From an uncultured Leptospiraceae bacterium (lineage in GTDB: Bacteria > Spirochaetota > Leptospiria > Leptospirales > Leptonemataceae): a stretch of 12,451 nt of DNA. A program made the position numbers and the translations under genes. The stretch spans positions 598 to 13,048 of the forward strand of contig CAZGYS010000114.1 of assembly GCA_964530305.1 (NCBI GenBank). Reading direction: 5' to 3'. The notes beneath the pieces are model-generated. The model did not search any database and was not told the origin of the DNA. It saw only the letters and a list, made by a program, of their open reading frames with translations. Below are positions 2,076-12,451 of the stretch, in pieces; positions within the stretch are counted from its first letter, which is position 1; every line of letters starts with the position of its first letter.

Positions 2076-2917
2076 TGAGCCGGCATCTCCAATACAGACG
2101 GGCACCCGGCGTCGATCGGTTCGCGGCCATGTGCGCTTGCGCGATTTTCGCGGCCGTACTGGCCGCTTCCTGCGCCACGTCGACCGCCGCCTCTTCGACG
2201 CCGAGCAGTGCTTCGAGCGCGCTGAAGGTCAAGACGTCCGCGCAACTCGTACGCGAAGACAGCCAGCGAGCGGCCGCGGGCAAGGTAATCGCCCGACACA
2301 AGCTGCTGATTACGGCTTATGAATTCGGCGTGACGCGCAACGTGGACGTGGCCGCGCAAAAGCTGAACTACTTTCTGCTGCCTCCCGGCGCGTCCTTTTC
2401 CCTGAACAAGCACCTGGGTAAGCGCACCCCGGACAAGGGTTATAAGAAAGCCCCGGTATATGCGGGCGCGGGGGCGCGTATCAAGGACTTCGGCGGCGGC
2501 CTGTGCATGGTCTCCTCGGTTCTATACAATATTTTTCTACGGGGCGGTCTGGAGATTCTGGAACGCCATCCCCATCGTAAGATTGTGAAATACGTTCCCG
2601 CGGGACTGGACTCGGCGGTGGACTGGGGCAGCAAGGACCTGCGCGTGCGCAACAACCAGCCCCATGCCCTGGTCATTCGCGTCTACCGCGAAGGCAAAAT
2701 CGTACATGGGGAACTCATGGGACCCGCGGGTCCCGCCCATGAAATCGAAATCAAACGCCATCTGTCCCGGGCCATCATTCCGGGCGTTTTGCAAAACGGC
2801 TTTCGCGTCCGAACCACGCGAACCTTCTTCGAACCCGGCGGGGAATTACTCCGAGAAGAAATTCTCTCGGAGGATACTTTCCTGCCCATCAACTACCAGG
2901 GAGCACCCGCTCAATGA
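2075..2917 (+). CDS. VanW-domain protein (VanW/YoaR-like, peptidoglycan-associated protein of unknown biochemical function). It has an N-terminal signal peptide and is possibly a lipoprotein.
   Basis: The 280-aa ORF carries the diagnostic VanW motif block KDFGGGLCMVSSVLYNIF...ERHPHRKIVKYVPAGLDSAVDWGSKDLRVRNNQPHALVI. The VanW consensus is GGGxCQVSTTLYNA...ERHNH...Y...G.DATV, so the match is close. The N-terminus has a basic n-region, a hydrophobic stretch (FAAMCACAIFAAVLAAS) and a Cys. The start overlaps the upstream stop (TGATG), and the stop overlaps the next start (ATGA), which indicates translational coupling. Confidence 0.8.
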   Translation: MSRHLQYRRAPGVDRFAAMCACAIFAAVLAASCATSTAASSTPSSASSALKVKTSAQLVREDSQRAAAGKVIARHKLLITAYEFGVTRNVDVAAQKLNYFLLPPGASFSLNKHLGKRTPDKGYKKAPVYAGAGARIKDFGGGLCMVSSVLYNIFLRGGLEILERHPHRKIVKYVPAGLDSAVDWGSKDLRVRNNQPHALVIRVYREGKIVHGELMGPAGPAHEIEIKRHLSRAIIPGVLQNGFRVRTTRTFFEPGGELLREEILSEDTFLPINYQGAPAQ

Positions 2918-3873
2918 AATCGCATCTTAAATTCACGGCACCGGCAACGGCCGCCCTGACCCTCGCGGCGGCGCTGACCCTGCTCGGGGGATTTTCGGAC
3001 GGACCCCGGGCCCAGGCTTCGTCGACGCGCTACGTTACGGCGAAGTACGGCCTGCGCATGAGGTCCAGGCCTTCCCTGCGTGGGAAACGCGTCGCCACCA
3101 TTCCCGCGAAGGCGCAAGTCTACCTGATAAGGGAGTACGGTCGCACGCAAGTCATGAGCGGAAAGCGCGGTCGCTGGTCCTACGTGCGCTGGAATAAGCG
3201 CGCGGGCTGGGTCTTCGGAGGCTTCTTGAGTCGCCTGCGCCCCGGCGCGAAGGCCGGCATGCCCCGCATCACGATTCTCTCCCCGGGCAGCGGCTGGACG
3301 GCTAAAAAGATCGTCGTAGTAAAAGGGATGATTGAAAGCTCGGAGCCCGTGCGCGAAGCGCGATTTACCCAGAACGGGATCTCGCGCAGCATTCCCGTGA
3401 ACTCGGGACGCTTCTCGCAAAAGATTGTCCTGGGCTCCGGCGCGAACTACATCAAGATCGAAGCCACGAACGCGGGCGGCACTTCGGCGGCGGCGCTGAA
3501 ACTGGTTACGAACAACAGCCCCATGGACATGAAGGTGGTGCTCTCGTGGGATACGAACAACACCGACGTGGATCTGTGGGTTACCGATCCCAACAATGAA
3601 AAGGTTTCCTACCGGAACAAGCGCTCGAAGATAGGCGGGCAACTGGACGTAGACATCACCTCGGGCTACGGCCCCGAGACCTTCACCCTGGCCCGCGCCC
3701 TCCCCGGCGAATACCTGGTTCAGGTTCAGTATTACGGCGGCGCGCGTCCTACGATGGCCCGCGTGCTGGTCGTGCTCTATGAAGGCACCCCGAAAGAAAA
3801 ACGCCTGACCTTTCCCGCGCTTCTGCATAAACGCGGCAGCGGCATCACCATCGGCCGCTTCAAGGTGGACTAA
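2914..3873 (+). CDS. Secreted protein with three parts: an N-terminal bacterial SH3-like (SH3b) domain, an Ig-like beta-sandwich and a C-terminal YfaP-like (DUF2135-like) domain.
   Basis: The signal peptide is MKSHLKFTAPATAALTLAAALTLLGG...AQA. The segment YVTAKYGLRMRSRPSLRGKRVATIPAKAQVYLIREYG...WSYVRWNKRAGWVFGGFL has the SH3b signature (Y-V-x-a-xxLNVRSGPS...G-x-V...WxxV...G-x-GWV). The C-terminal block VLSWDTNNTDVDLWVTDPNNEKVSYRN...GGQLDVDITSGYGPETFTLARALPGEYLVQVQYYGG resembles, from memory, the conserved core of the YfaP/DUF2135 domain that is linked to A2M loci. There is a GGGAG 14 nt upstream of the ATG, and the ATGA overlap with the VanW gene indicates coupling. Confidence 0.7.
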   Translation: MKSHLKFTAPATAALTLAAALTLLGGFSDGPRAQASSTRYVTAKYGLRMRSRPSLRGKRVATIPAKAQVYLIREYGRTQVMSGKRGRWSYVRWNKRAGWVFGGFLSRLRPGAKAGMPRITILSPGSGWTAKKIVVVKGMIESSEPVREARFTQNGISRSIPVNSGRFSQKIVLGSGANYIKIEATNAGGTSAAALKLVTNNSPMDMKVVLSWDTNNTDVDLWVTDPNNEKVSYRNKRSKIGGQLDVDITSGYGPETFTLARALPGEYLVQVQYYGGARPTMARVLVVLYEGTPKEKRLTFPALLHKRGSGITIGRFKVD

Positions 3874-3895: not shown

Positions 3896-4651
3896 ATGAA
3901 GAAAAACGGCAAAATACTCTCCCTCATTCTCGCGGCGGGCATGCTCGCGGTCGTCCCCTGGTCCGAAACCGAGGCCACCAGCTTGACGACGGTCATTCGT
4001 AAAGTTAAGCGCGGCGATCGCAATGCCCTGACCAGTATCAGCTCGCGCGATTTTACGCGCCTGCATAATTACCGCGGCAAGTACTACTATATACCGCGCT
4101 TCATCGGCAAGAAGGCCGTGCGGAGCCTGTTCGGATGCTTCCGAAATCCGGACCGCGAAGTGCGGCGACTGTGCGCGGACAATCTCTACCAGTTCAAACT
4201 CACCTACGTGCACAAGAAACTGATTTTGTATTATATGCAAAAGGAAACCCACAAGCCGACGCGACTGGCCCTCCAGGACCTCATGATTCGCATCGATGAG
4301 GAACGCTTCGCGGAAGCCCGGCGCCTGGGAGACCGGAACTTCCTCACCAAGATTGATTTCGACCACATCCAGCCTTTTACGGAAAAGGGTTACCCCTCCG
4401 GCGGAGCCTACACCGACCGGGACATTCGCTTTTTGCGGGGCGGCCTGGGTAATAAGGACTATCGCATGCGGGTTTACGTCATTCGGATGATGGGACGCGT
4501 GCGCGGCGCCGACGCCACGCTCCTGCGCGTGCTGGCCATCCGGAAGAAACGCGAGTCCAACACCTCGGTTCGGCGCGCCATCGACGAATCCATTCGCTGC
4601 ATTCGCTCGCCCCGGTCCTGCCCGGACCTCTACGGCCCCTCGGATCAATAA
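3896..4651 (+). CDS. Secreted hypothetical protein with HEAT/PBS-lyase-like alpha-helical repeats.
   Basis: The 251-aa ORF starts 23 nt after the previous stop, in the same orientation. Its signal peptide is MKKNGKILSLILAAGMLAVVPWSETEA. It has repeated D/N-x-x-VRR-x-(A/C)-x-x-(L/I) segments (DREVRRLCADNL, DYRMRVYVIRMMGRV, NTSVRRAIDESI) typical of HEAT-like repeats. There is no recognisable catalytic motif. Codon usage is consistent with the neighbouring genes. Confidence 0.55.
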   Translation: MKKNGKILSLILAAGMLAVVPWSETEATSLTTVIRKVKRGDRNALTSISSRDFTRLHNYRGKYYYIPRFIGKKAVRSLFGCFRNPDREVRRLCADNLYQFKLTYVHKKLILYYMQKETHKPTRLALQDLMIRIDEERFAEARRLGDRNFLTKIDFDHIQPFTEKGYPSGGAYTDRDIRFLRGGLGNKDYRMRVYVIRMMGRVRGADATLLRVLAIRKKRESNTSVRRAIDESIRCIRSPRSCPDLYGPSDQ

Positions 4652-4929: not shown

Positions 4930-4959
4930 GCGGCGTATTTCGCGTCGCATGGTTTTTTT
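4930..4959 (+). terminator. Weak candidate intrinsic terminator: a short GC hairpin followed by a T7 tract.
   Basis: GCGGCG (4930-4935) pairs with CGTCGC (4943-4948) using one G-U pair, around the loop TATTTCG. ATGG and then TTTTTTT (4953-4959) follow. The stem is short, and there is a 4-nt gap before the T-tract. Confidence 0.2.
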
Positions 4960-5112: not shown

Positions 5113-5856
5113 ATGCCGCCCATCATAGCCGAATCCATCAAACTGGTTAACCTTCCTTATACCATCTTCCTGGGAGTCATCATCATCTTCTGGCTCACCG
5201 TCATGCTCGGCGCGCTGGACATGGAATCCCTGGACGTGGACGCGGATGTCGACGCCGATGTTGATCTCGACCTCGACGTGGATATGGACGTGGACGCAGA
5301 CTTCGATGCCGATATCGACGCGGACGTGGACGCCGACCTGGATACGGATCTGGATGCCGACGCCGGCATGGGCGGCGGCGCGCTGGGCAGTTTCTGGGCC
5401 GCCTTGAACCTGGGCGCCGTGCCCCTATCCGTCTGGCTTTCCATCTTCGGAATCCTGTGCTGGTTCCTGTCCGTCAGCGGCAACATCATCGTGGACGGCA
5501 CGGTCCTCAAGAGCATTCATAACTTCTTTCGCCTGGTGCTGGGCAGTCTGTTGATCATTCCCCTGGCCGCGTTCATTACGCGTTTCGCCGTAATACCCCT
5601 GCGCCCGGTGTTTCGCATTCCGGACCCCAAGGACAATAAGGACTACGTCCGGGACATCTGCAAGATTACGTCATCAAAAGTGACGCCGACCTTCGGCATG
5701 GCGGAAATTCCCACGGACGCATCGCCCCTGCTCGTCAATGTTCGCGCCCGCGAAGAAGAGGGTCTGACCAAGGGCGACAAGGCGATGATCCTGCGTTATC
5801 ATAAAGATAAAAATTATTACGATGTAACCCGCTTCGAACACGAGAGCCTGAACTAG
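5113..5856 (+). CDS. YqiJ/NfeD-like inner-membrane protein (flotillin-associated). It has three predicted transmembrane helices and a C-terminal OB-fold-like beta domain. A 44-residue alternating Asp-X tract sits between TM1 and TM2.
   Basis: The 247-aa ORF has hydrophobic helices at about aa 14-35, 92-120 and 138-162. The C-terminal soluble segment (TFGMAEIPTDASPLLVNVRAREEEGLTKGDKAMILRYHKDKNYYDV) resembles the NfeD/YqiJ C-terminal beta-barrel, including a TKGDK-hydrophobic motif that I recall from E. coli YqiJ. It lies immediately upstream of a flotillin gene, which is the canonical nfeD/yqiJ position. An AAGGGAG RBS-like element is present upstream. Confidence 0.75.
   Translation: MPPIIAESIKLVNLPYTIFLGVIIIFWLTVMLGALDMESLDVDADVDADVDLDLDVDMDVDADFDADIDADVDADLDTDLDADAGMGGGALGSFWAALNLGAVPLSVWLSIFGILCWFLSVSGNIIVDGTVLKSIHNFFRLVLGSLLIIPLAAFITRFAVIPLRPVFRIPDPKDNKDYVRDICKITSSKVTPTFGMAEIPTDASPLLVNVRAREEEGLTKGDKAMILRYHKDKNYYDVTRFEHESLN
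5233..5361 (+). repeat. In-frame imperfect hexanucleotide tandem repeat (GAY-NNN), about 22 units. It encodes the strictly alternating dipeptide tract DVDADVDADVDLDLDVDMDVDADFDADIDADVDADLDTDLDAD.
   Basis: Direct reading of 5233-5361 shows Asp codons (GAC/GAT) at every second codon. The intervening codons encode V/A/L/M/F/I/T. The period is 6 nt and the frame is never broken. Confidence 0.85.
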
Positions 5857-5951: not shown

Positions 5952-8036
5952 ATGAAGGAAATACTGGATCTTTTAACCAGCGGATTGATTGGCCTGTCGG
6001 TACTGGTAATCTTTTTGCTGATTGGCATAGTCTTTTTGCTGACCCGCTTTCTGGCCAAGGTGGAGCCGGGCAAGGCATTGATCATCATCAGTCCTTTCAA
6101 GGGCATGAAGGTATCATTCACCGGCGCGCTGGTATTTCCTTTAATTCATAGAATGGAGATCATGGACATCTCCACCAAGATGATTACCGTGGAAAGGCGG
6201 GGCAAGGACGGCCTGATCTGCAAGGACAACATGCGGGCCGACATATCGGTGAACTTCTACCTGCGCGTAAATCCCACGCGGGAAGACGTCACCCAGGTCG
6301 GCCAGAGTATCGGTGTGGCGCGTGCCTCAACGCGGGAGACGCTGGACTCCCTCTTTCAAGCTAAATTCTCCGAAGCCCTCAAGACCGTGGGTAAACAGAT
6401 GGACTTCGAGGATCTGTTCATGGAGAGAACAAGTTTCAAGGAGCAAATCGTAGAGAGCATCGGAGATAACCTGAACGGCTACAGCCTGGAAGATACGGCC
6501 ATCGACTATCTGGAGCAAACGCCCCTCGAGGAACTGGATGAAAACAACATCATGGACGCGGAAGGTATTCGCAAGATTACCGAAATCACGCTGACCAAAA
6601 AGGAAGTCGTCGAGAAGCGCACCACGGAAACCCGCGAGCGCATCCTGGAGCTGGAAAAACAGCGCAAGGAAGCGGAAGCCAAGCAGAAAAGTGAAATCAT
6701 GATCATCGAAGCCAAGGAAGAGGCCGAAGCCAAACGCGTACAGGAAGAAGAACGCCTGAAGGCCGAATCCGCGCGCATTGCATCGGACGAAAGCATCTCC
6801 GTGGGCGAAGTCAACATGGCTCGTCAGATCGAAGTGGCGGAGAAAAACAAGGAACGGGAAGTCGCCGTGGAAACCGAGCGCGTTGAAAAAGACCGCGCCC
6901 TGGAAGCCACCGACCGCGAAAAGCTCGTGGCCCTGGCCACCATCGAGAAAGACCGCGTGGTGGAAGCCGAGCGCAAGAACATCGCCGATATCGTGCGTCA
7001 ACGCGTGGCCGTGGAAAGAACCGTGGCCGAAGAAGAAGAGACCACGAAGAATACCCGCGCCTTCGCCGGAGCCGACCGGGACAAGCGCGTGGCCATCACC
7101 CACGCCGAAAAGGAAGCCGAGGAAAAACTGGTACTTGAAATCAAGTCCGCCGAAGCACGCGAAAAAGCGGCCGCTCACTTGGCGCGGGAAAAAGAAATCA
7201 ACGCGGACGTGGAGTTCTCCACCGCTTCCAAGCACGCCGACGCCAAGAAGACCCTGGCCGAGGGTATCATCGCCGAGGAAAGCGCCGAGGGCCTGGCCAA
7301 AGTCAAGGTCAAGCAGGCCGACGCCGACGCCATCCGCCGCGTAGGCGAAGCCGAGGCCAAGGCCAAGGAATTCGACTACGAAGTGGAAGCCAAGGGCATC
7401 AAGGAGAAGGGCCTGGCGGAAGTAAACGTCCGCAACGCCAACGCGGAAGTCACCGAACGCATCGGCCAGGCGGAAGCCGAATCCAAGCGCTTCATGTACG
7501 ACGTGGAAGCTCAAGGCATCGAGAAAAAAGCGGAAGCCATGAAAAACTACGACGGCGTGGGCCGCGAACACGAGGAATACAAACTGCAACTGGCCCTGCG
7601 CGAAAAGCTGGAGCTGGAGCGCATCGGCGTGAACAAGGACATCGCCATTGCGCGGGCGGAAGTCCTGGGAACCGCGTTGGAGAACGCGAAGATCGACATC
7701 GTGGGCGGGGACGGACAGTTCTTCGACAAGATCGTCGGGGCCGTTTCCGACGGACGCTCCGCGTCGGCCTTCATGAAGAACAACGAGCCTTTGACCGAAG
7801 TCAAGGACGCCCTGCTGGCCTCCGGGGACGACAATTTGTTGAATCGCATCAAGACCCTGGCCGATCACACCGGCATCTCGGCGGAGAGCGTGAAGGATCT
7901 CACCATCGCCGCGGTGCTCACCAAAATGGCCGTGGCCACGGACGACGGTTGGGTCAAGGAACAAGTCAATTCCCTCTCCGCCATGGCGGACAAGGTCGGC
8001 CTGAGCGATATGAAGCTCGGAAAACTGATGGGTTGA
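5952..8036 (+). CDS. Flotillin-like SPFH/band-7 family protein (YqiK/FloT-like). It has an N-terminal membrane anchor, an SPFH domain and a long Glu/Ala/Lys-rich coiled-coil flotillin tail.
   Basis: The 694-aa ORF begins with a transmembrane helix (LIGLSVLVIFLLIGIVFLLTRFL). The SPFH core is PGKALIIISPFKGMKVSFTGALVFPLIHRMEIMDISTKMITVERRGKDGLICKDNMRADISVNFYLRVNPTREDVTQV. It is followed by about 450 aa of EAxxK/ExxER heptad-like repeats, which are typical of bacterial flotillins. A strong SD (AAGGAGA) lies 11 nt upstream of the ATG. The gene follows a yqiJ/nfeD-like gene, as in known flotillin operons. Confidence 0.9.
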   Translation: MKEILDLLTSGLIGLSVLVIFLLIGIVFLLTRFLAKVEPGKALIIISPFKGMKVSFTGALVFPLIHRMEIMDISTKMITVERRGKDGLICKDNMRADISVNFYLRVNPTREDVTQVGQSIGVARASTRETLDSLFQAKFSEALKTVGKQMDFEDLFMERTSFKEQIVESIGDNLNGYSLEDTAIDYLEQTPLEELDENNIMDAEGIRKITEITLTKKEVVEKRTTETRERILELEKQRKEAEAKQKSEIMIIEAKEEAEAKRVQEEERLKAESARIASDESISVGEVNMARQIEVAEKNKEREVAVETERVEKDRALEATDREKLVALATIEKDRVVEAERKNIADIVRQRVAVERTVAEEEETTKNTRAFAGADRDKRVAITHAEKEAEEKLVLEIKSAEAREKAAAHLAREKEINADVEFSTASKHADAKKTLAEGIIAEESAEGLAKVKVKQADADAIRRVGEAEAKAKEFDYEVEAKGIKEKGLAEVNVRNANAEVTERIGQAEAESKRFMYDVEAQGIEKKAEAMKNYDGVGREHEEYKLQLALREKLELERIGVNKDIAIARAEVLGTALENAKIDIVGGDGQFFDKIVGAVSDGRSASAFMKNNEPLTEVKDALLASGDDNLLNRIKTLADHTGISAESVKDLTIAAVLTKMAVATDDGWVKEQVNSLSAMADKVGLSDMKLGKLMG

Positions 8037-8037
8037 C

Positions 8038-11000
8038 ATGGCCGAGGAAACTTCCACGACAATCGCGGACGAAGAAGTCGGACCGGGCGAAAGCCCGGCC
8101 GGCGAAGGCTCCCAGGGCGGCGGCGCCCTTGAGGGTGGTTCCTATGAGATCATTCGCAATCGCCTTTCCAAAATAGGCGATGAACTCCTGGAGCGCATCA
8201 ACCAGCTCAACGGCCGACGCAAGGAAGTCTTCGGCGCGCTGGACAATCGCCTGGTGGGGCAGGAGCAGATCCTCACCGACACCAATTGCGTCCCCATCGA
8301 CATGAAGTCGCTGGGCGGCAATCGCTTGATTTTCGGTTATCGCGTCTATTTAGGTTTGAAGACGACGCCGAAGATCTCGGATGTCTTCAGCCTGTATGAA
8401 TTCAAGGACGATAAATTCGAACCGGCACCCGCGGATTTTCTGGAGACGCCGGCCTTCGTCCGCGATTTCAACGACCTCTTTAACTATTATAAGAACTCCC
8501 GGTTCGTAACCTTTCATAAGGACGAATCGCGCCTGCTGATGGTTTTCCAGGTGGGCAAGGAAAGCGAGGACATTCGTGCCTTCAAGTGGCTCCTGAACGG
8601 GGACAATACCCTGACCTACGTAAACAATCGCGCCGAGCGCGAATACGTTTACCCGCCCCAGCACGAATTCGAATGGAAGCGAGCCACGCGGGATCAACAG
8701 ATCTACGGCACGCACCCGCACATCTCCATCGAGGACAAGGTTTTCGTGGAGTGTACCGGCGGCGATTTAACCATCAAGGTCGAGAACAATACCGATTCCG
8801 GCGCCGGCATTTATCGCGAGGACGTGGAACACAAGGACCAGACGCTGGACGACGCGGAAGTTCACTACGCCGTTCTGGATCACGTGGTACTTTTGCGCAT
8901 CAAGCCCTTTCGCGAAAAGGACTACCGCTATATTATTTTTAATGAGAAGACCGAAAAGGCCGTGCGGGTGGACGACATCGAGCAGAGCGCCATTCGTCTG
9001 CCCGAGGACGACGGTCTGATCTTTCCCCGGGGTTACTATCTGGAGAGCGGCGAATATAAGCGCTTCGAGCTGGAGATTCCCTCCATGCAGTATCGCAAGC
9101 TCTTGCCCTCGTCAAACGGCGAAGACTTCCTGTACGTTTTCTTCAACGCCGACCTGGGCGAATACATTCTGCTGCAATACAATCTAATCGAAAAGAAAGT
9201 CGAAAACCCCATCTACTGCCACGGCTTCGCGCTCTACGAAGACGGCAAGATGATCTTCTTCAAGGGCGATGAGCAGGCCAAGAAGAATCACGGCATTCAA
9301 ATCTGGCAAACGCCCTTCGTCAGCGACAAGCACATGCAACTGGCCGTGAAGGACGATTCGGAACTGAATCGCATCGGTAACAAGGAGCTGGTGCGGGGCA
9401 TAGCGGATTTGCGTTCCGTGTTGAATCTGTTGCGCACGGAAAAAGTCTACCTGGGTCTTTATCATCAAATCGCCCGCAAGGTTACCAATACGCTGGACTT
9501 CCATCACTGGATGGGATCCGACCAGGTCTTTAATCCGAAGGAAGTCCTGCAACGCGCGGGCGAAACCGCCAAGGGCGCGCTGGAAGAGTACGAAAAAGTC
9601 GTGCAAATTCGCGCGAACACCGAGAACGCCGTGAAGGCCGCCTCGAGTCGCATGGAAAAACTGGAGCTGGAGCTGGGCGGCCGTCGCTTCGAACAGATCG
9701 AGCAGTACGTGGAAACCCTGGCGGATCTGCGCATGGAGCGCGGCAAGATCATTTCCCTGAAAGAATTGCGCTACGTCGACGCGAACAAGGTCGACGAGCT
9801 GGAAGCCATCGCCGTAAGGCTGCACGACGTGACCGCCCATGGGTGCGTGGAGTTTCTGTTAAAACCCGAGGCGCTCACGCCCTTCATGGACAAACTCAAG
9901 GACTACGAGGGGCAAATCACGGAGCTGGAGAAAGTGGCCCAGTTGCGCGAACTGGGTGAGAAAATCGCCCAGGTAAACGAGAGCGCCAACCTGCTGACCG
10001 AGATGGTCAACAACCTGGAGATCGACGACGCCACTCAGACCACGAACATCATCAACAACATCTCGAATGTTTATACGCGCATCAACCAGGTCAAGGCCGC
10101 GCACAAGAAACACACCCATTCCCTGCACGCCCAGGAGTCCAAGGAAGAGTTCGCCGCGCAGTTCAAGCTCATCAGCCAGACCGTGGCCACCTTCCTGGAT
10201 CAAGCCGATTCGCCCGAACGCTGCGAAGAGCTTCTGACGCGGGTTCTCGTTCAACTGGAGGAACTGGAAGCACGCTTCGCCGATTTCGACGAGTACATCG
10301 AGGAGCTTTCGCGCAAGCGCGAGGAGATCTACAGCGCCTTCAATTCGCGCAAGGTGCAACTGGAAGAAGGTCGCAACAAGCGCAGCGCCACGCTATGGAA
10401 ATCCGCGGAGCGCATCCTCAAGGGCGTATCCAATCGCATGTCCCAGTTGAAGGGCATCGACGAACTAAACGCCTACTTCGCGGGAGACGCCATGATCACC
10501 CGCGTGCGGGACATCGTTGAGAAACTGGCGGAGATGGGAGATCAGGTGAAGTCCGAGGACATCGCCGGTCGCCTCAAGAGCCTCAAACAAGAAGGCGCGC
10601 GTCAGTTAAAAGACAAGCTGGACCTCTTCGCCGACGGCGCGGACGTCATCAGTCTGGGTCGCCATAAGTTTCTGATCAATACCCAGTCCGCGGAACTGAC
10701 CACCGTCAATCGCGACGGAGAAATGTGCTTTCATTTAACGGGCACGGAATTCTTCGAACCCATTCAAGACGAAAGCTTCGAAGCCACCCGACCGTTCTGG
10801 GAACAGGAGCTGCCTTCGGAGACGTCGGAGATCTATCGCGCCGAATACCTGGCGTACAAGATTATCCGCTCCGTGCGTGAGGAAGGCACGCCCCTTTCGG
10901 AAAAGGAACTCCACGACATCACCCGGGACCTGGACCGCGAATTTCACAACGCCGAACCCAACGAACTCCAGGAAGCCCCGGACTTTCAGAAACTACTGGA

Positions 11001-12451
11001 AGCCGTACGATCCTTCATGGCCGGGCGCTATTCCGAGGGATATGAAAAAGGCGTGCACGATCTGGATTGCGCGCGCCTGCTGACGGCCCTCTACCCCGTG
11101 TACGCCCGCGCGGGCGCATTGCGATTCGCGCCGGATACGCGCGCTTATGGATATTTGTACTGGCGCCACGCGGAGCACACCGAGGCCAAGGAGTTGCTGG
11201 GTCGCAAGATTCGCTCCTATGGCCTTCTGGGCGAACTGACTCCCACGGCCAACGCTCATCCCGTTTACGTCGAGCAATTGAACGAGATGGTCGCCGCCTG
11301 GTTCGAGGACCAGGGCATTCCCGCGAAACCGGGGGCCCTGCGCCACACGGCGGACTACCTATTCGAGGAACTCAAGGCGGGCCGCGGCGACGCCATGGGC
11401 GGCGCGAAGGGCACCGGCCACATGTTTCCCATCAACGGGCAGGCCTATGATATCTACATGGCCTTTCGCGATTTTCTCAAGTCGAAGAAATCCATTCGCC
11501 GTTTCAATGAAGCCGTGAAGAGCATCGGTCCGGGAGCGGGAGGACGCCTGTCCATCATTCAGGACTGGGTGGGAGCTTTCGTGGATGCCCACGAGGAGAT
11601 GAATTCGGACTTCGTCCTGGAAACCTCCATGGCCGTGCTCGACGAAACGCTGGACGATAAACTGGACGGCGATCTGGATTCCGGACTCGTCGTGAAAATC
11701 GACACAACCTGCACGGCACGAGGCATGATGGGGCGTCACCCGCGCATCGAAGACGGCAACCTCAGCGTGGACGTGGCCGACTTCCTGATGCGACTCGACG
11801 AATTCGAGACCGAGAGCGTACCGCGCTACCGCGATTACACGCAACTCAAGCACGACCTTACCGAAAAACAAAAAGACGTCATGCGTCTGGACGAATTCAA
11901 GCCGCGCATCATGAGCGCCTTCGTGCGTAACAAACTCATCGATACGGCCTACCTGCCCCTCATCGGCGCGAACCTGGCCAAGCAGATGGGTTCCTACGGC
12001 GATCAAAAACGCACGGACCTCATGGGCCTGTTGATGCTGATTTCGCCGCCCGGTTACGGCAAGACGACCTTGATGGAGTACATCGCCAATCGCCTGGGGC
12101 TGATCTTCATGAAGATCAACGGTCCGGCTCTCGGCCACAATGTCGTGTCCCTGGATCCGCAGGAGGCGCCCAACGCCACCGCGCGCGAAGAGGTGAACAA
12201 ACTCAACCTGGCGCTGGAGATGGGCAACAACGTCATGATCTACCTGGACGACATCCAGCACACGCACCCGGAGTTTCTTCAAAAGTTTATTTACCTCTGT
12301 GACGCGCAGCGCAAGATCGAGGGTGTCTATCGCGGACGCACGCGAACCTACGACCTGCGGGGCAAGCGCGTCTCGGTGGTCATGGCCGGCAACCCGTATA
12401 CGGAAAGCGGCGAAAAGTTCCAGGTCCCCGATATGCTGGCCAACCGGGCCG
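8038..12451 (+). CDS. Giant multidomain protein, 3'-partial, with at least 1471 aa in the window. It has an N-terminal beta-rich region (about aa 1-480), a central coiled-coil region of about 370 aa, an alpha/beta middle region and a C-terminal AAA+ ATPase domain. Its architecture is reminiscent of the large proteins annotated as 'DNA repair ATPase' (DUF3686 plus AAA), but I have not verified this.
   Basis: ATG 8038 lies 1 nt after the flotillin TGA (8034-8036). Frame 1 has no stop from 8038 to the window end. I translated it myself. The ORF track omits it because it lacks an in-window stop. Every other + strand ORF listed in this span is in a different frame and is R/P-rich junk. The translation is protein-like throughout and begins MAEETSTTIADEEV...GGSYEIIRNRLSKIGDELLERINQL. 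It has heptad-rich segments (EKLELELGGRRFEQIEQYVETLADLRMERGK, VLVQLEELEARFADFDEYIEELSRKREEIYSAF). It ends with an AAA+ core: Walker A LISPPGYGKTTLMEY (nt 12043-12069 encode SPPGYGKTT), Walker B VMIYLDDIQH (YLDD at 12241-12252), sensor-1 VVMAGNPY (12376-12393), then PDMLANRA at the window edge. Confidence 0.8.
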   Translation, partial: MAEETSTTIADEEVGPGESPAGEGSQGGGALEGGSYEIIRNRLSKIGDELLERINQLNGRRKEVFGALDNRLVGQEQILTDTNCVPIDMKSLGGNRLIFGYRVYLGLKTTPKISDVFSLYEFKDDKFEPAPADFLETPAFVRDFNDLFNYYKNSRFVTFHKDESRLLMVFQVGKESEDIRAFKWLLNGDNTLTYVNNRAEREYVYPPQHEFEWKRATRDQQIYGTHPHISIEDKVFVECTGGDLTIKVENNTDSGAGIYREDVEHKDQTLDDAEVHYAVLDHVVLLRIKPFREKDYRYIIFNEKTEKAVRVDDIEQSAIRLPEDDGLIFPRGYYLESGEYKRFELEIPSMQYRKLLPSSNGEDFLYVFFNADLGEYILLQYNLIEKKVENPIYCHGFALYEDGKMIFFKGDEQAKKNHGIQIWQTPFVSDKHMQLAVKDDSELNRIGNKELVRGIADLRSVLNLLRTEKVYLGLYHQIARKVTNTLDFHHWMGSDQVFNPKEVLQRAGETAKGALEEYEKVVQIRANTENAVKAASSRMEKLELELGGRRFEQIEQYVETLADLRMERGKIISLKELRYVDANKVDELEAIAVRLHDVTAHGCVEFLLKPEALTPFMDKLKDYEGQITELEKVAQLRELGEKIAQVNESANLLTEMVNNLEIDDATQTTNIINNISNVYTRINQVKAAHKKHTHSLHAQESKEEFAAQFKLISQTVATFLDQADSPERCEELLTRVLVQLEELEARFADFDEYIEELSRKREEIYSAFNSRKVQLEEGRNKRSATLWKSAERILKGVSNRMSQLKGIDELNAYFAGDAMITRVRDIVEKLAEMGDQVKSEDIAGRLKSLKQEGARQLKDKLDLFADGADVISLGRHKFLINTQSAELTTVNRDGEMCFHLTGTEFFEPIQDESFEATRPFWEQELPSETSEIYRAEYLAYKIIRSVREEGTPLSEKELHDITRDLDREFHNAEPNELQEAPDFQKLLEAVRSFMAGRYSEGYEKGVHDLDCARLLTALYPVYARAGALRFAPDTRAYGYLYWRHAEHTEAKELLGRKIRSYGLLGELTPTANAHPVYVEQLNEMVAAWFEDQGIPAKPGALRHTADYLFEELKAGRGDAMGGAKGTGHMFPINGQAYDIYMAFRDFLKSKKSIRRFNEAVKSIGPGAGGRLSIIQDWVGAFVDAHEEMNSDFVLETSMAVLDETLDDKLDGDLDSGLVVKIDTTCTARGMMGRHPRIEDGNLSVDVADFLMRLDEFETESVPRYRDYTQLKHDLTEKQKDVMRLDEFKPRIMSAFVRNKLIDTAYLPLIGANLAKQMGSYGDQKRTDLMGLLMLISPPGYGKTTLMEYIANRLGLIFMKINGPALGHNVVSLDPQEAPNATAREEVNKLNLALEMGNNVMIYLDDIQHTHPEFLQKFIYLCDAQRKIEGVYRGRTRTYDLRGKRVSVVMAGNPYTESGEKFQVPDMLANRA
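11900..12451 (+). other. AAA+ ATPase domain (truncated by the window end) at the C-terminus of the giant ORF.
   Basis: The P-loop GYGKTT, a hydrophobic run followed by DD (Walker B), and an Asn-containing sensor-1 (AGN) appear in the canonical order and spacing (about 65 aa from Walker A to B, about 45 aa from B to sensor-1). The Walker A variant SPPGYGKT differs from the usual GPPGTGKT. Confidence 0.7.

Follow-up and report, generated by a model that had tools for sequence, protein, structure and literature searches.

A strictly alternating aspartate tract in a YqiJ/NfeD2-like protein: a probable long form of the family's acidic loop

Why would a bacterial membrane protein contain a long run of residues in which every second one is aspartate? 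This question is raised by a gene on the plus strand (positions 5113-5856) of a 12,451-nucleotide stretch of DNA from an uncultured Leptospiraceae bacterium (GenBank assembly GCA_964530305.1, contig CAZGYS010000114.1). The whole stretch is referred to below as the window, and its first nucleotide is position 1. The gene encodes a YqiJ/NfeD2-like protein of 247 residues and the run, hereafter the Asp-X tract, is located at positions 5233-5361. The data presented here support that the tract is very probably an expanded form of the acidic loop which, across the YqiJ/NfeD2 (DUF1449) family of flotillin partners, joins the first transmembrane helix (TM1) to a short helix preceding the second (TM2).

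At the protein level, the alternation extends from Asp41 (nucleotide 5233) to Asp83 (nucleotide 5361), i.e., over 129 nucleotides or 43 codons of the plus strand, and comprises 22 Asp and 21 intervening residues without a single exception. The intervening X residues are small or hydrophobic (seven Ala, six Val, four Leu and one each of Met, Phe, Ile and Thr), as an initial annotation of this DNA had described. This annotation had also given the tract as 44 residues, a length which is reached only if Ala84 (to nucleotide 5364) is included. With Asp accounting for 4.6% of the residues encoded by five further genes in the window, the probability of finding 22 Asp at 22 fixed positions is about 4e-30, and no second (D-x)n run with at least five Asp was found in any of the six frames of the window. 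The loop to which the tract belongs contains 24 Asp and Glu residues and neither Lys nor Arg. An open reading frame (ORF) on the minus strand (5157-5516) lies over the tract and encodes a Ser/Thr/Ala repeat; it was rejected as an unsupported shadow ORF. The family profile and the tract, each used as a query against the PDB sequences, returned nothing relevant, and no comparable segment was thus found in solved structures. Similarly, a homologue search with the tract alone yielded nothing usable, with one match at E=0.49.

The assignment of the protein to the YqiJ/NfeD2 family is made because three lines of evidence converge, namely homology, the predicted structure with its OB-fold match, and the neighboring flotillin gene. 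A first homologue search returned 604 proteins. Those matched at E-values of 1e-42 to 1e-24 include some called "DUF1449 family protein" and some with PF21001; in the set as a whole, several bear this name or that of "OB-fold-containing protein", and PF21001 is present in many. BLASTP against Escherichia coli YqiJ gave E=1e-5, with an identity of only 22%. Pfam assigned no significant family to the protein itself, YqiJ_N (PF21001) being reached at E=0.1 and 13.2 bits against a gathering cut-off of 23, and the YqiJ OB-fold model gave no Pfam match in the window protein. An AlphaFold2 model, computed on an alignment of 119 sequences, has a mean predicted local distance difference test (pLDDT) value of 85.6 and contains three transmembrane helices with pLDDT above 90 and a five-stranded C-terminal barrel. 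This barrel was matched by Foldseek to 3wwv (PH1510-C; TM-score 0.83, root-mean-square deviation 2.3 Å) and to 2k14 (YuaF; TM-score 0.66). Immediately downstream, the start of a flotillin ORF lies 95 nucleotides after the nfeD2-like gene, on the same strand; it matches PF01145 (Band_7) at E=5.7e-7 and E. coli YqiK by BLASTP at E=1e-36. The same nfeD2-flotillin order is found at four homologous loci (L002-L005). These results bear out the earlier description of the protein as YqiJ/NfeD-like, and the gene is a divergent member of this family carrying a long instance of its acidic loop, not a new kind of system. The features of the gene pair are as follows.

5113-5856, plus strand: yqiJ/nfeD2-like gene, 247 residues, with three transmembrane helices, an acidic loop and a C-terminal OB-fold (ORF, homologues, AlphaFold2, BLASTP).
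5143-5205, plus strand: TM1, residues 11-31; W27 and, just past the helix, G33 are nearly invariant (AlphaFold2 helix, conserved columns).
5215-5232, plus strand: conserved entry motif "LDMESL", residues 35-40 (N-terminal sequences of 267 homologues).
5233-5361, plus strand: strict Asp-X alternation, D41-D83 (translation; AlphaFold2 pLDDT ~50, no secondary structure).
5362-5379, plus strand: Gly-rich hinge "AGMGGG", residues 84-89, at the loop end (sequence; comparable Gly-rich ends in many homologues).
5380-5424, plus strand: short helix, residues 90-97, and conserved "LNLGAVP", residues 98-104, before TM2, with an invariant P104 (AlphaFold2, conservation).
5425-5499, plus strand: TM2, residues 105-129 (AlphaFold2 helix).
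5521-5613, plus strand: third transmembrane helix (TM3), residues 137-167, with a Lys/Arg-rich, probably cytoplasmic exit (AlphaFold2, family Lys+Arg counts).
5653-5832, plus strand: NfeD-type OB-fold, strands at residues 182-240 (Foldseek).
5952-8036, plus strand: flotillin/YqiK-like SPFH protein, 694 residues, with an N-terminal transmembrane segment, Band_7 and a long Glu/Ala/Lys-rich coiled coil; operon partner of the nfeD2-like gene (Pfam, BLASTP).

As previously surmised, the tract is located between TM1 and TM2, and the AlphaFold2 model places no part of it within a transmembrane segment. In this model, the tract stands out by a pLDDT of ~50 and the lack of secondary structure, compared with values above 90 elsewhere. 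Gene pairs of this type have been described as the NfeD2-SPFH2 operon type, the NfeD2 group corresponding to YqiJ/YuaF (Hinderhofer et al., 2009; PMC2636767), and a later comparative study termed YqiJ/YuaF "3TM domain protein". E. coli YqiJ shares with the window protein its three N-terminal transmembrane helices, the C-terminal NfeD-type OB-fold, a gene position directly upstream of a YqiK-type flotillin, and an acidic patch at the same site after TM1, followed by an "LN(I/L)G..P" motif. In contrast, its equivalent loop is only ~8 residues long ("LDAHLDHYD"), against 43 alternating residues with 22 Asp in the window protein, consistent with the short acidic patch which the initial annotation had given for YqiJ. 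Two other identities were rejected. SD-repeat adhesins (ClfA/B, SdrC/D) were matched in NCBIfam at 15.7-18.2 bits against cut-offs of 999-2500, with the tract alone being aligned, a compositional similarity; as for an EF-hand-like DxDxDG calcium loop, the tract ends in "...DLDADAG", has no D-x-D-x-D-G and lies in a region without confident structure.

Is the tract, then, peculiar to this lineage? The first homologue search had been seeded on exact 5-mers and was biased towards Asp-X tracts. Since such seeding favors Asp-X words, a second search was performed with the tract-free C-terminal 164 residues, using index-free HMMER on 1.84 billion cluster representatives. It returned 1175 matches at E≤1e-3; the loop was surveyed in the best 150 of them, and the 105 representatives with a delimitable loop were used for statistics. 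Among the top 120 matches of the first search, nearly all have, right after TM1, a (D-x)n run whose strict part is 6-66 residues long. In the best 150 tract-free matches, most members have an acidic loop between TM1 and the "F-L-N-x-G-x-V-P" motif. This loop is hypervariable, and among homologues its length ranges from ~12 to 153 residues. At its entry, the pattern of the family, drawn from the N-terminal sequences of 267 homologues, is G-x-x-D-h-[DE]-x-h followed by D-h-D, a minimal acidic patch which is kept even in short-loop members.

Five forms of the loop can be distinguished: minimal "LDFDFE(VD)" loops, which occur in homologues of roughly 190-210 residues; Asp-X runs; mixed Asp/Glu alternation; His-containing loops; and period-4 "DGAL/EGAA" loops. 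The autocorrelation of acidic residues in the 105 loops is 0.01 at lag 1, meaning that they are almost never adjacent, 0.42 at lag 2 and 0.40 at lag 4. At least five residues of alternating Asp, Glu or His are present in 75 of the 105 loops, 68 lack Lys and Arg altogether, and 22 contain at least three His. The His-containing loops, such as "HVDAHVDAHVD", "HHDFDMDHDIDMHHDFDAH" and "GHGDHGDHGHADHGDHGD" (P0164, P0093, P0151, P0191 and P0264), keep the period-2 register. The period-4 loops, built of "DGAL DGV(D/E)GA" or "EGAAEGA" and up to ~100 residues long (P0167, P0198, P0139, P0257 and P0249), suggest a second solution to the same requirement. In the nearest relatives (46-54% identity; P0002-P0004 and P0121), strict Asp runs span 6-22 residues, with an alternation of Asp and Glu over 24-31 residues in P0002-P0004.

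The 43-residue pure-Asp run of the window belongs to the long tail of a trait shared across the family, because strict Asp runs of at least 21 residues occur in just three of the 105 representatives, none of which reaches 31. The lineage-specific expansion which the initial annotation had favored does not hold: the acidic period-2 loop is family-wide, and pure Asp-X runs of 30-66 residues recur in Planctomycetota, Bacteroidota, Myxococcota, Spirochaetota and other lineages, among metagenomes and metagenome-assembled genomes. The long-tract homologues (strict runs of 66 residues in P0092, 62 in P0069, 46 in P0007 and 36 in P0005) have the same architecture and the same Asp-hydrophobic alternation, but their identity with the window protein does not exceed 50%; some of these lineages also retain fresh 24- or 42-nucleotide DNA repeats, a feature absent from the window. 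In the literature searched on YqiJ, DUF1449 and NfeD, the acidic tract is not mentioned, and the loop, although visible in many database sequences, appears to be undescribed as a family feature.

What might such a loop do? The reading which we favor, with a probability of about 0.4, is that the tract represents a selected, disordered and polyanionic juxtamembrane element, which would condense cations or act electrostatically. The loop would be located at the cytoplasmic side of the membrane, close to the OB-fold and either below the flotillin assembly or at its flank. Taken alone, the tract would be a disordered polyanion with a charge of about -22, whose carboxylates, ~7 Å apart, would condense Mg2+, polyamines and possibly Fe2+ or Mn2+ through standard polyelectrolyte behavior. 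After charge neutralization, the alternation of acidic and hydrophobic residues would permit an amphipathic extended strand at the membrane interface, with its hydrophobic side turned to the lipid and its carboxylate side to the cytoplasm. The Asp/hydrophobic pattern would be held by selection and the repeat number would drift fast by in-frame duplication and deletion.

The link with cations is suggested by analogy with 1) the His-containing variants in the same register, 2) the behavior of the designed alternating peptide (LE)8, which forms β-sheet nanofibers and hydrogels with Ca2+ (PMC6473879), and 3) an iron phenotype in Shewanella, in which loss of the flotillin SO1377, whose gene adjoins that of the DUF1449 protein SO1376, decreased free iron 3-fold (PMC1468410). 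A metallochaperone function of SO1376 was a speculation of the authors of that study (PMC1468410). Designed peptides of the (LE)8 type resemble the tract by their strict polar/non-polar alternation; in contrast to it, they are synthetic, free and mostly Glu-based, while the tract is tethered at both ends to transmembrane helices. Several points weigh against the favored reading. The Shewanella phenotype is that of the flotillin and not of the tract. The wide range of loop lengths and the sufficiency of the short E. coli loop indicate that the core function does not depend on a long tract. The period-4 variants misfit a simple β-strand model and, in the AlphaFold2 model of the monomer, no strand is predicted for the tract, which speaks against the β-strand with one acidic and one hydrophobic face considered in the initial annotation.

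A possible, if doubtful, alternative is that the tract is a tolerated low-complexity spacer. Only the short acidic motif after TM1 would then matter, and the remaining Asp-X units would be by-products of tandem duplication or slippage within a loop free of constraint, their pattern persisting since duplication copies it and since variants that are basic or hydrophobic throughout would do harm. The extreme variation in loop length, the minimal loops of some homologues, the "LDAHLDHYD" of E. coli and the disorder predicted by AlphaFold2 all agree with this explanation, as do comparisons of close relatives. P0271 and P0056, which belong to one 90% cluster and are 97% identical, differ by a sole indel, an 8-residue deletion in the tract of P0271; P0095 and P0272, 95% identical, differ by a 4-residue indel within the tract; and P0056 and P0092, with flanks 93.5% identical, have tracts differing in length by 12 residues. 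Other close pairs show tract differences of two or six residues. Indels between close relatives are thus confined to the tract and come in multiples of two residues, and the in-frame length change which had been anticipated from the repeat is observed at the family level. In the P0092 lineage, the DNA contains 24- and 42-nucleotide tandem repeats and a 30-nucleotide exact repeat, and expansion is by tandem duplication of multi-codon units.

Against the spacer explanation stands first the DNA of the window itself. All Asp codons of the tract are GAY (13 GAC and 9 GAT), its 22 hexamer units comprise 15 different hexamers, the longest exact internal repeat is 12 nucleotides, and Tandem Repeats Finder reports 70% matches with scores of 34-49. 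The repeat has therefore undergone decay, both at synonymous sites and at X, but every one of the 22 Asp remains and X stays hydrophobic or small. Because the 22 Asp are intact despite this decay and the mixture of GAC and GAT, the pattern appears to be maintained by selection at the protein level rather than by repeat homogenization. From a GAY codon, non-synonymous paths exceed synonymous ones 3.5-8 fold and, provided that the tract arose by duplication, its sequence implies purifying selection on Asp. The period-2 rule, under which acidic residues hardly ever stand next to each other, also holds across phyla with the unbiased query. Finally, Gly and polar residues are disfavored at X: ~96% of the X residues are Val, Ala, Leu, Ile, Phe or Met in the first, word-seeded set; Lys, Arg, Glu, Gln and Asn never occur in either set; and Gly is rare (1-8%), although GGY is a single mutation away from GAY.

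Rather unlikely, in our view, is that the loop serves for electrostatic docking or as a holdase. It would bind basic surfaces, i.e., the Lys/Arg-rich parts of the flotillin (the juxtamembrane "TRFLAK" and the coiled coil) or clients, the latter being basic or unfolded proteins held in the flotillin microdomain. The tight pairing of the gene with that of the flotillin, both in the window and at the homologous loci, is in line with this explanation. Likewise, the FloA-NfeD of Staphylococcus aureus has been reported to stabilize unfolded proteins (PMC11222466), and the QmcA-YbbJ complex, an SPFH-NfeD assembly which a passage of PMC13086221 cites as a cage of 26 heterodimers protruding into the cytoplasm, suggests an arrangement in which many loops would be concentrated. 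However, the published contacts between NfeD and flotillin involve the OB-fold and not the loop, and the NfeD proteins treated in those papers come from other subfamilies, with no acidic tract being mentioned for them there.

On which side of the membrane does the tract lie? An N-out/C-in topology with the tract in the cytoplasm is probable, because there are three transmembrane helices, a Lys/Arg cluster after TM3 (a family mean of 4.0 Lys+Arg in the 24 residues around and after its end), a net acidic N-terminal tail, a flotillin partner predicted to be cytoplasmic, and an OB-fold of a type described as cytosolic. The second loop is short and nearly uncharged. YqiK-type flotillins have been predicted to face the cytoplasm (PMC10434171), and the flotillin of the window has Lys and Arg directly after its transmembrane segment; the NfeD OB-fold has been described as cytosolic and flotillin-binding (PMC11222466), and the cited QmcA-YbbJ cage likewise points to the cytoplasm. 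A loop free of Lys and Arg on the inside is nevertheless unusual under the positive-inside rule, which weighs against the favored reading and leaves the topology less than certain.

The initial annotation had proposed a loop binding Ca2+ or Mg2+ next to the membrane. In the version of this idea in which the loop faces the periplasm, at the outer face of the inner membrane, it is quite unlikely. The 24 Asp and Glu without Lys or Arg would, by the positive-inside rule alone, put the loop outside, where divalent cations are far more available. With three transmembrane helices, however, this orientation would force the OB-fold into the periplasm, despite the Lys/Arg cluster after TM3, a flotillin which has Lys/Arg right after its transmembrane segment and is predicted to be cytoplasmic, and the binding of NfeD OB-folds to the cytoplasmic SPFH/flotillin part. 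A cytoplasmic placement therefore weakens the Ca2+ idea and favors Mg2+, polyamines, other cations or protein partners.

A bolder form of the favored reading, very unlikely to be correct, is a cation-switchable amphipathic strand, in which loops bound to Mg2+, metals or polyamines would form an anionic β-sheet-like layer on the cytoplasmic leaflet. If NfeD2 and flotillin formed a 1:1 cage of ~20-26 subunits as cited for QmcA-YbbJ, the loops together would present ~500 carboxylates. Such a protein-made surface would define the microdomain and act as a local cation reservoir or sensor, its area and charge being set by the number of repeats.

The question of the DNA repeat can also be put within the population. 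The initial annotation had described the tract as an imperfect 6-nucleotide microsatellite; a repeat of this unit is indeed present, though very imperfect, and the notion of a slippage-prone microsatellite fails because the DNA is too degenerate, with 15 hexamers in 22 units and no exact repeat longer than 12 nucleotides. A hypermutable microsatellite supposes a homogeneous short tandem DNA repeat, which the tract of the window is not. The only comparator is L006, an independent ENA contig (ERZ27264718, 2751 nucleotides) from essentially the same strain, which has a single nucleotide polymorphism in 2751 nucleotides and an identical tract; scans of metagenome and genome contigs found no close relatives beyond it. 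The polymorphism lies at position 5709, where the window has T and L006 has G; it replaces Ile by Met within the OB-fold region of the NfeD2-like protein, and the database copy P0001 equals the window protein save for this one residue. A contingency locus, in which the hexanucleotide repeat would slip often and produce length variants within a population, is accordingly barely credible: its in-frame unit and the length polymorphism at the family level are outweighed by the degenerate DNA, with only 70% matches in Tandem Repeats Finder, and by the identical tract of L006.

Comparable alternating sequences exist in unrelated proteins. In the staphylococcal Clf/Sdr adhesins, SD repeats serve as spacers; their coding DNA is made of short in-frame repeats, and their length differs from strain to strain. 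Like the tract, for which they gave the sole NCBIfam matches, they have Asp at every second residue; they differ from it in that X is Ser and that they are extracellular and span the cell wall, whereas X is hydrophobic in the tract, which forms a loop between two transmembrane helices. ZIP and CDF metal transporters have variable cytoplasmic (His-X)n loops. In these also, a metal-ligand residue alternates with a variable one within a cytoplasmic loop of variable length which is probably disordered, and in some DUF1449 loops His and Asp occur together in one register. The protein families are nevertheless unrelated and the ligand is His, not Asp; NfeD2 proteins, moreover, are not known to function in transport.

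The NfeD partners of flotillins are poorly understood, and the literature found treats only their OB-fold and transmembrane region. The YqiJ/NfeD2 branch has in addition a conserved, strongly patterned and length-hypervariable acidic loop, with Asp identity apparently under selection. This loop offers a concrete and cheap experimental handle on the contribution of NfeD2 to flotillin microdomains. The tract of the window is moreover a clean natural case of a periodic motif outlasting, at the protein level, its decayed DNA repeat.

Upstream of the gene pair, the window contains four plus-strand genes (27-2075, 2075-2917, 2914-3873 and 3896-4651) encoding, respectively, the C-terminal part of a bacterial alpha-2-macroglobulin (A2M), a VanW-like protein, a protein with SH3_3, Glucodextran_B and DUF2135 domains, and one with a weak HEAT-repeat match. 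The A2M part has A2M, TED and bMG10 domains, and its ORF probably extends past the window start. The stop and start codons of the first three genes abut or overlap, which suggests that these genes form one operon. A putative terminator separates this cluster from the gene pair.

4930-4958, plus strand: terminator-like hairpin and T-run between the upstream A2M/VanW cluster and the nfeD2-flotillin pair (consensus scan only, putative).

Downstream of the flotillin gene, only minus-strand ORFs are found. Five of them (8350-8721, 9184-9840, 9859-10359, 10993-11346 and 11359-12282) gave no Pfam match and all but 10993-11346 also had no NCBIfam or PADLOC match; the PADLOC defense models matched neither the NfeD2-like protein, the flotillin nor six neighboring ORFs. 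At the two closest homologous loci (L004, 8001-15833, and L005, 5760-13879), the NfeD2-flotillin pair is followed by large same-strand genes for DUF3686/DUF7902/AAA+ ATPases, which are absent from the window; this arrangement has been described as an extended operon type in a PSP comparative-genomics preprint. In the P0092 lineage, a 129-residue ORF without Pfam match abuts the nfeD2 start on both contigs (L002, 5612-6001; L003, 171-560), and a BFN-domain gene after the flotillin gene is likewise common to both. The flotillin gene of the window carries a repeat of its own, a 27-nucleotide tandem repeat of 2.3 copies with 76% matches in the coiled-coil region (7416-7476, plus strand), and its product is duplicated internally on a larger scale, around "EFDYEVEAKGI..." and "FMYDVEAQGI...".

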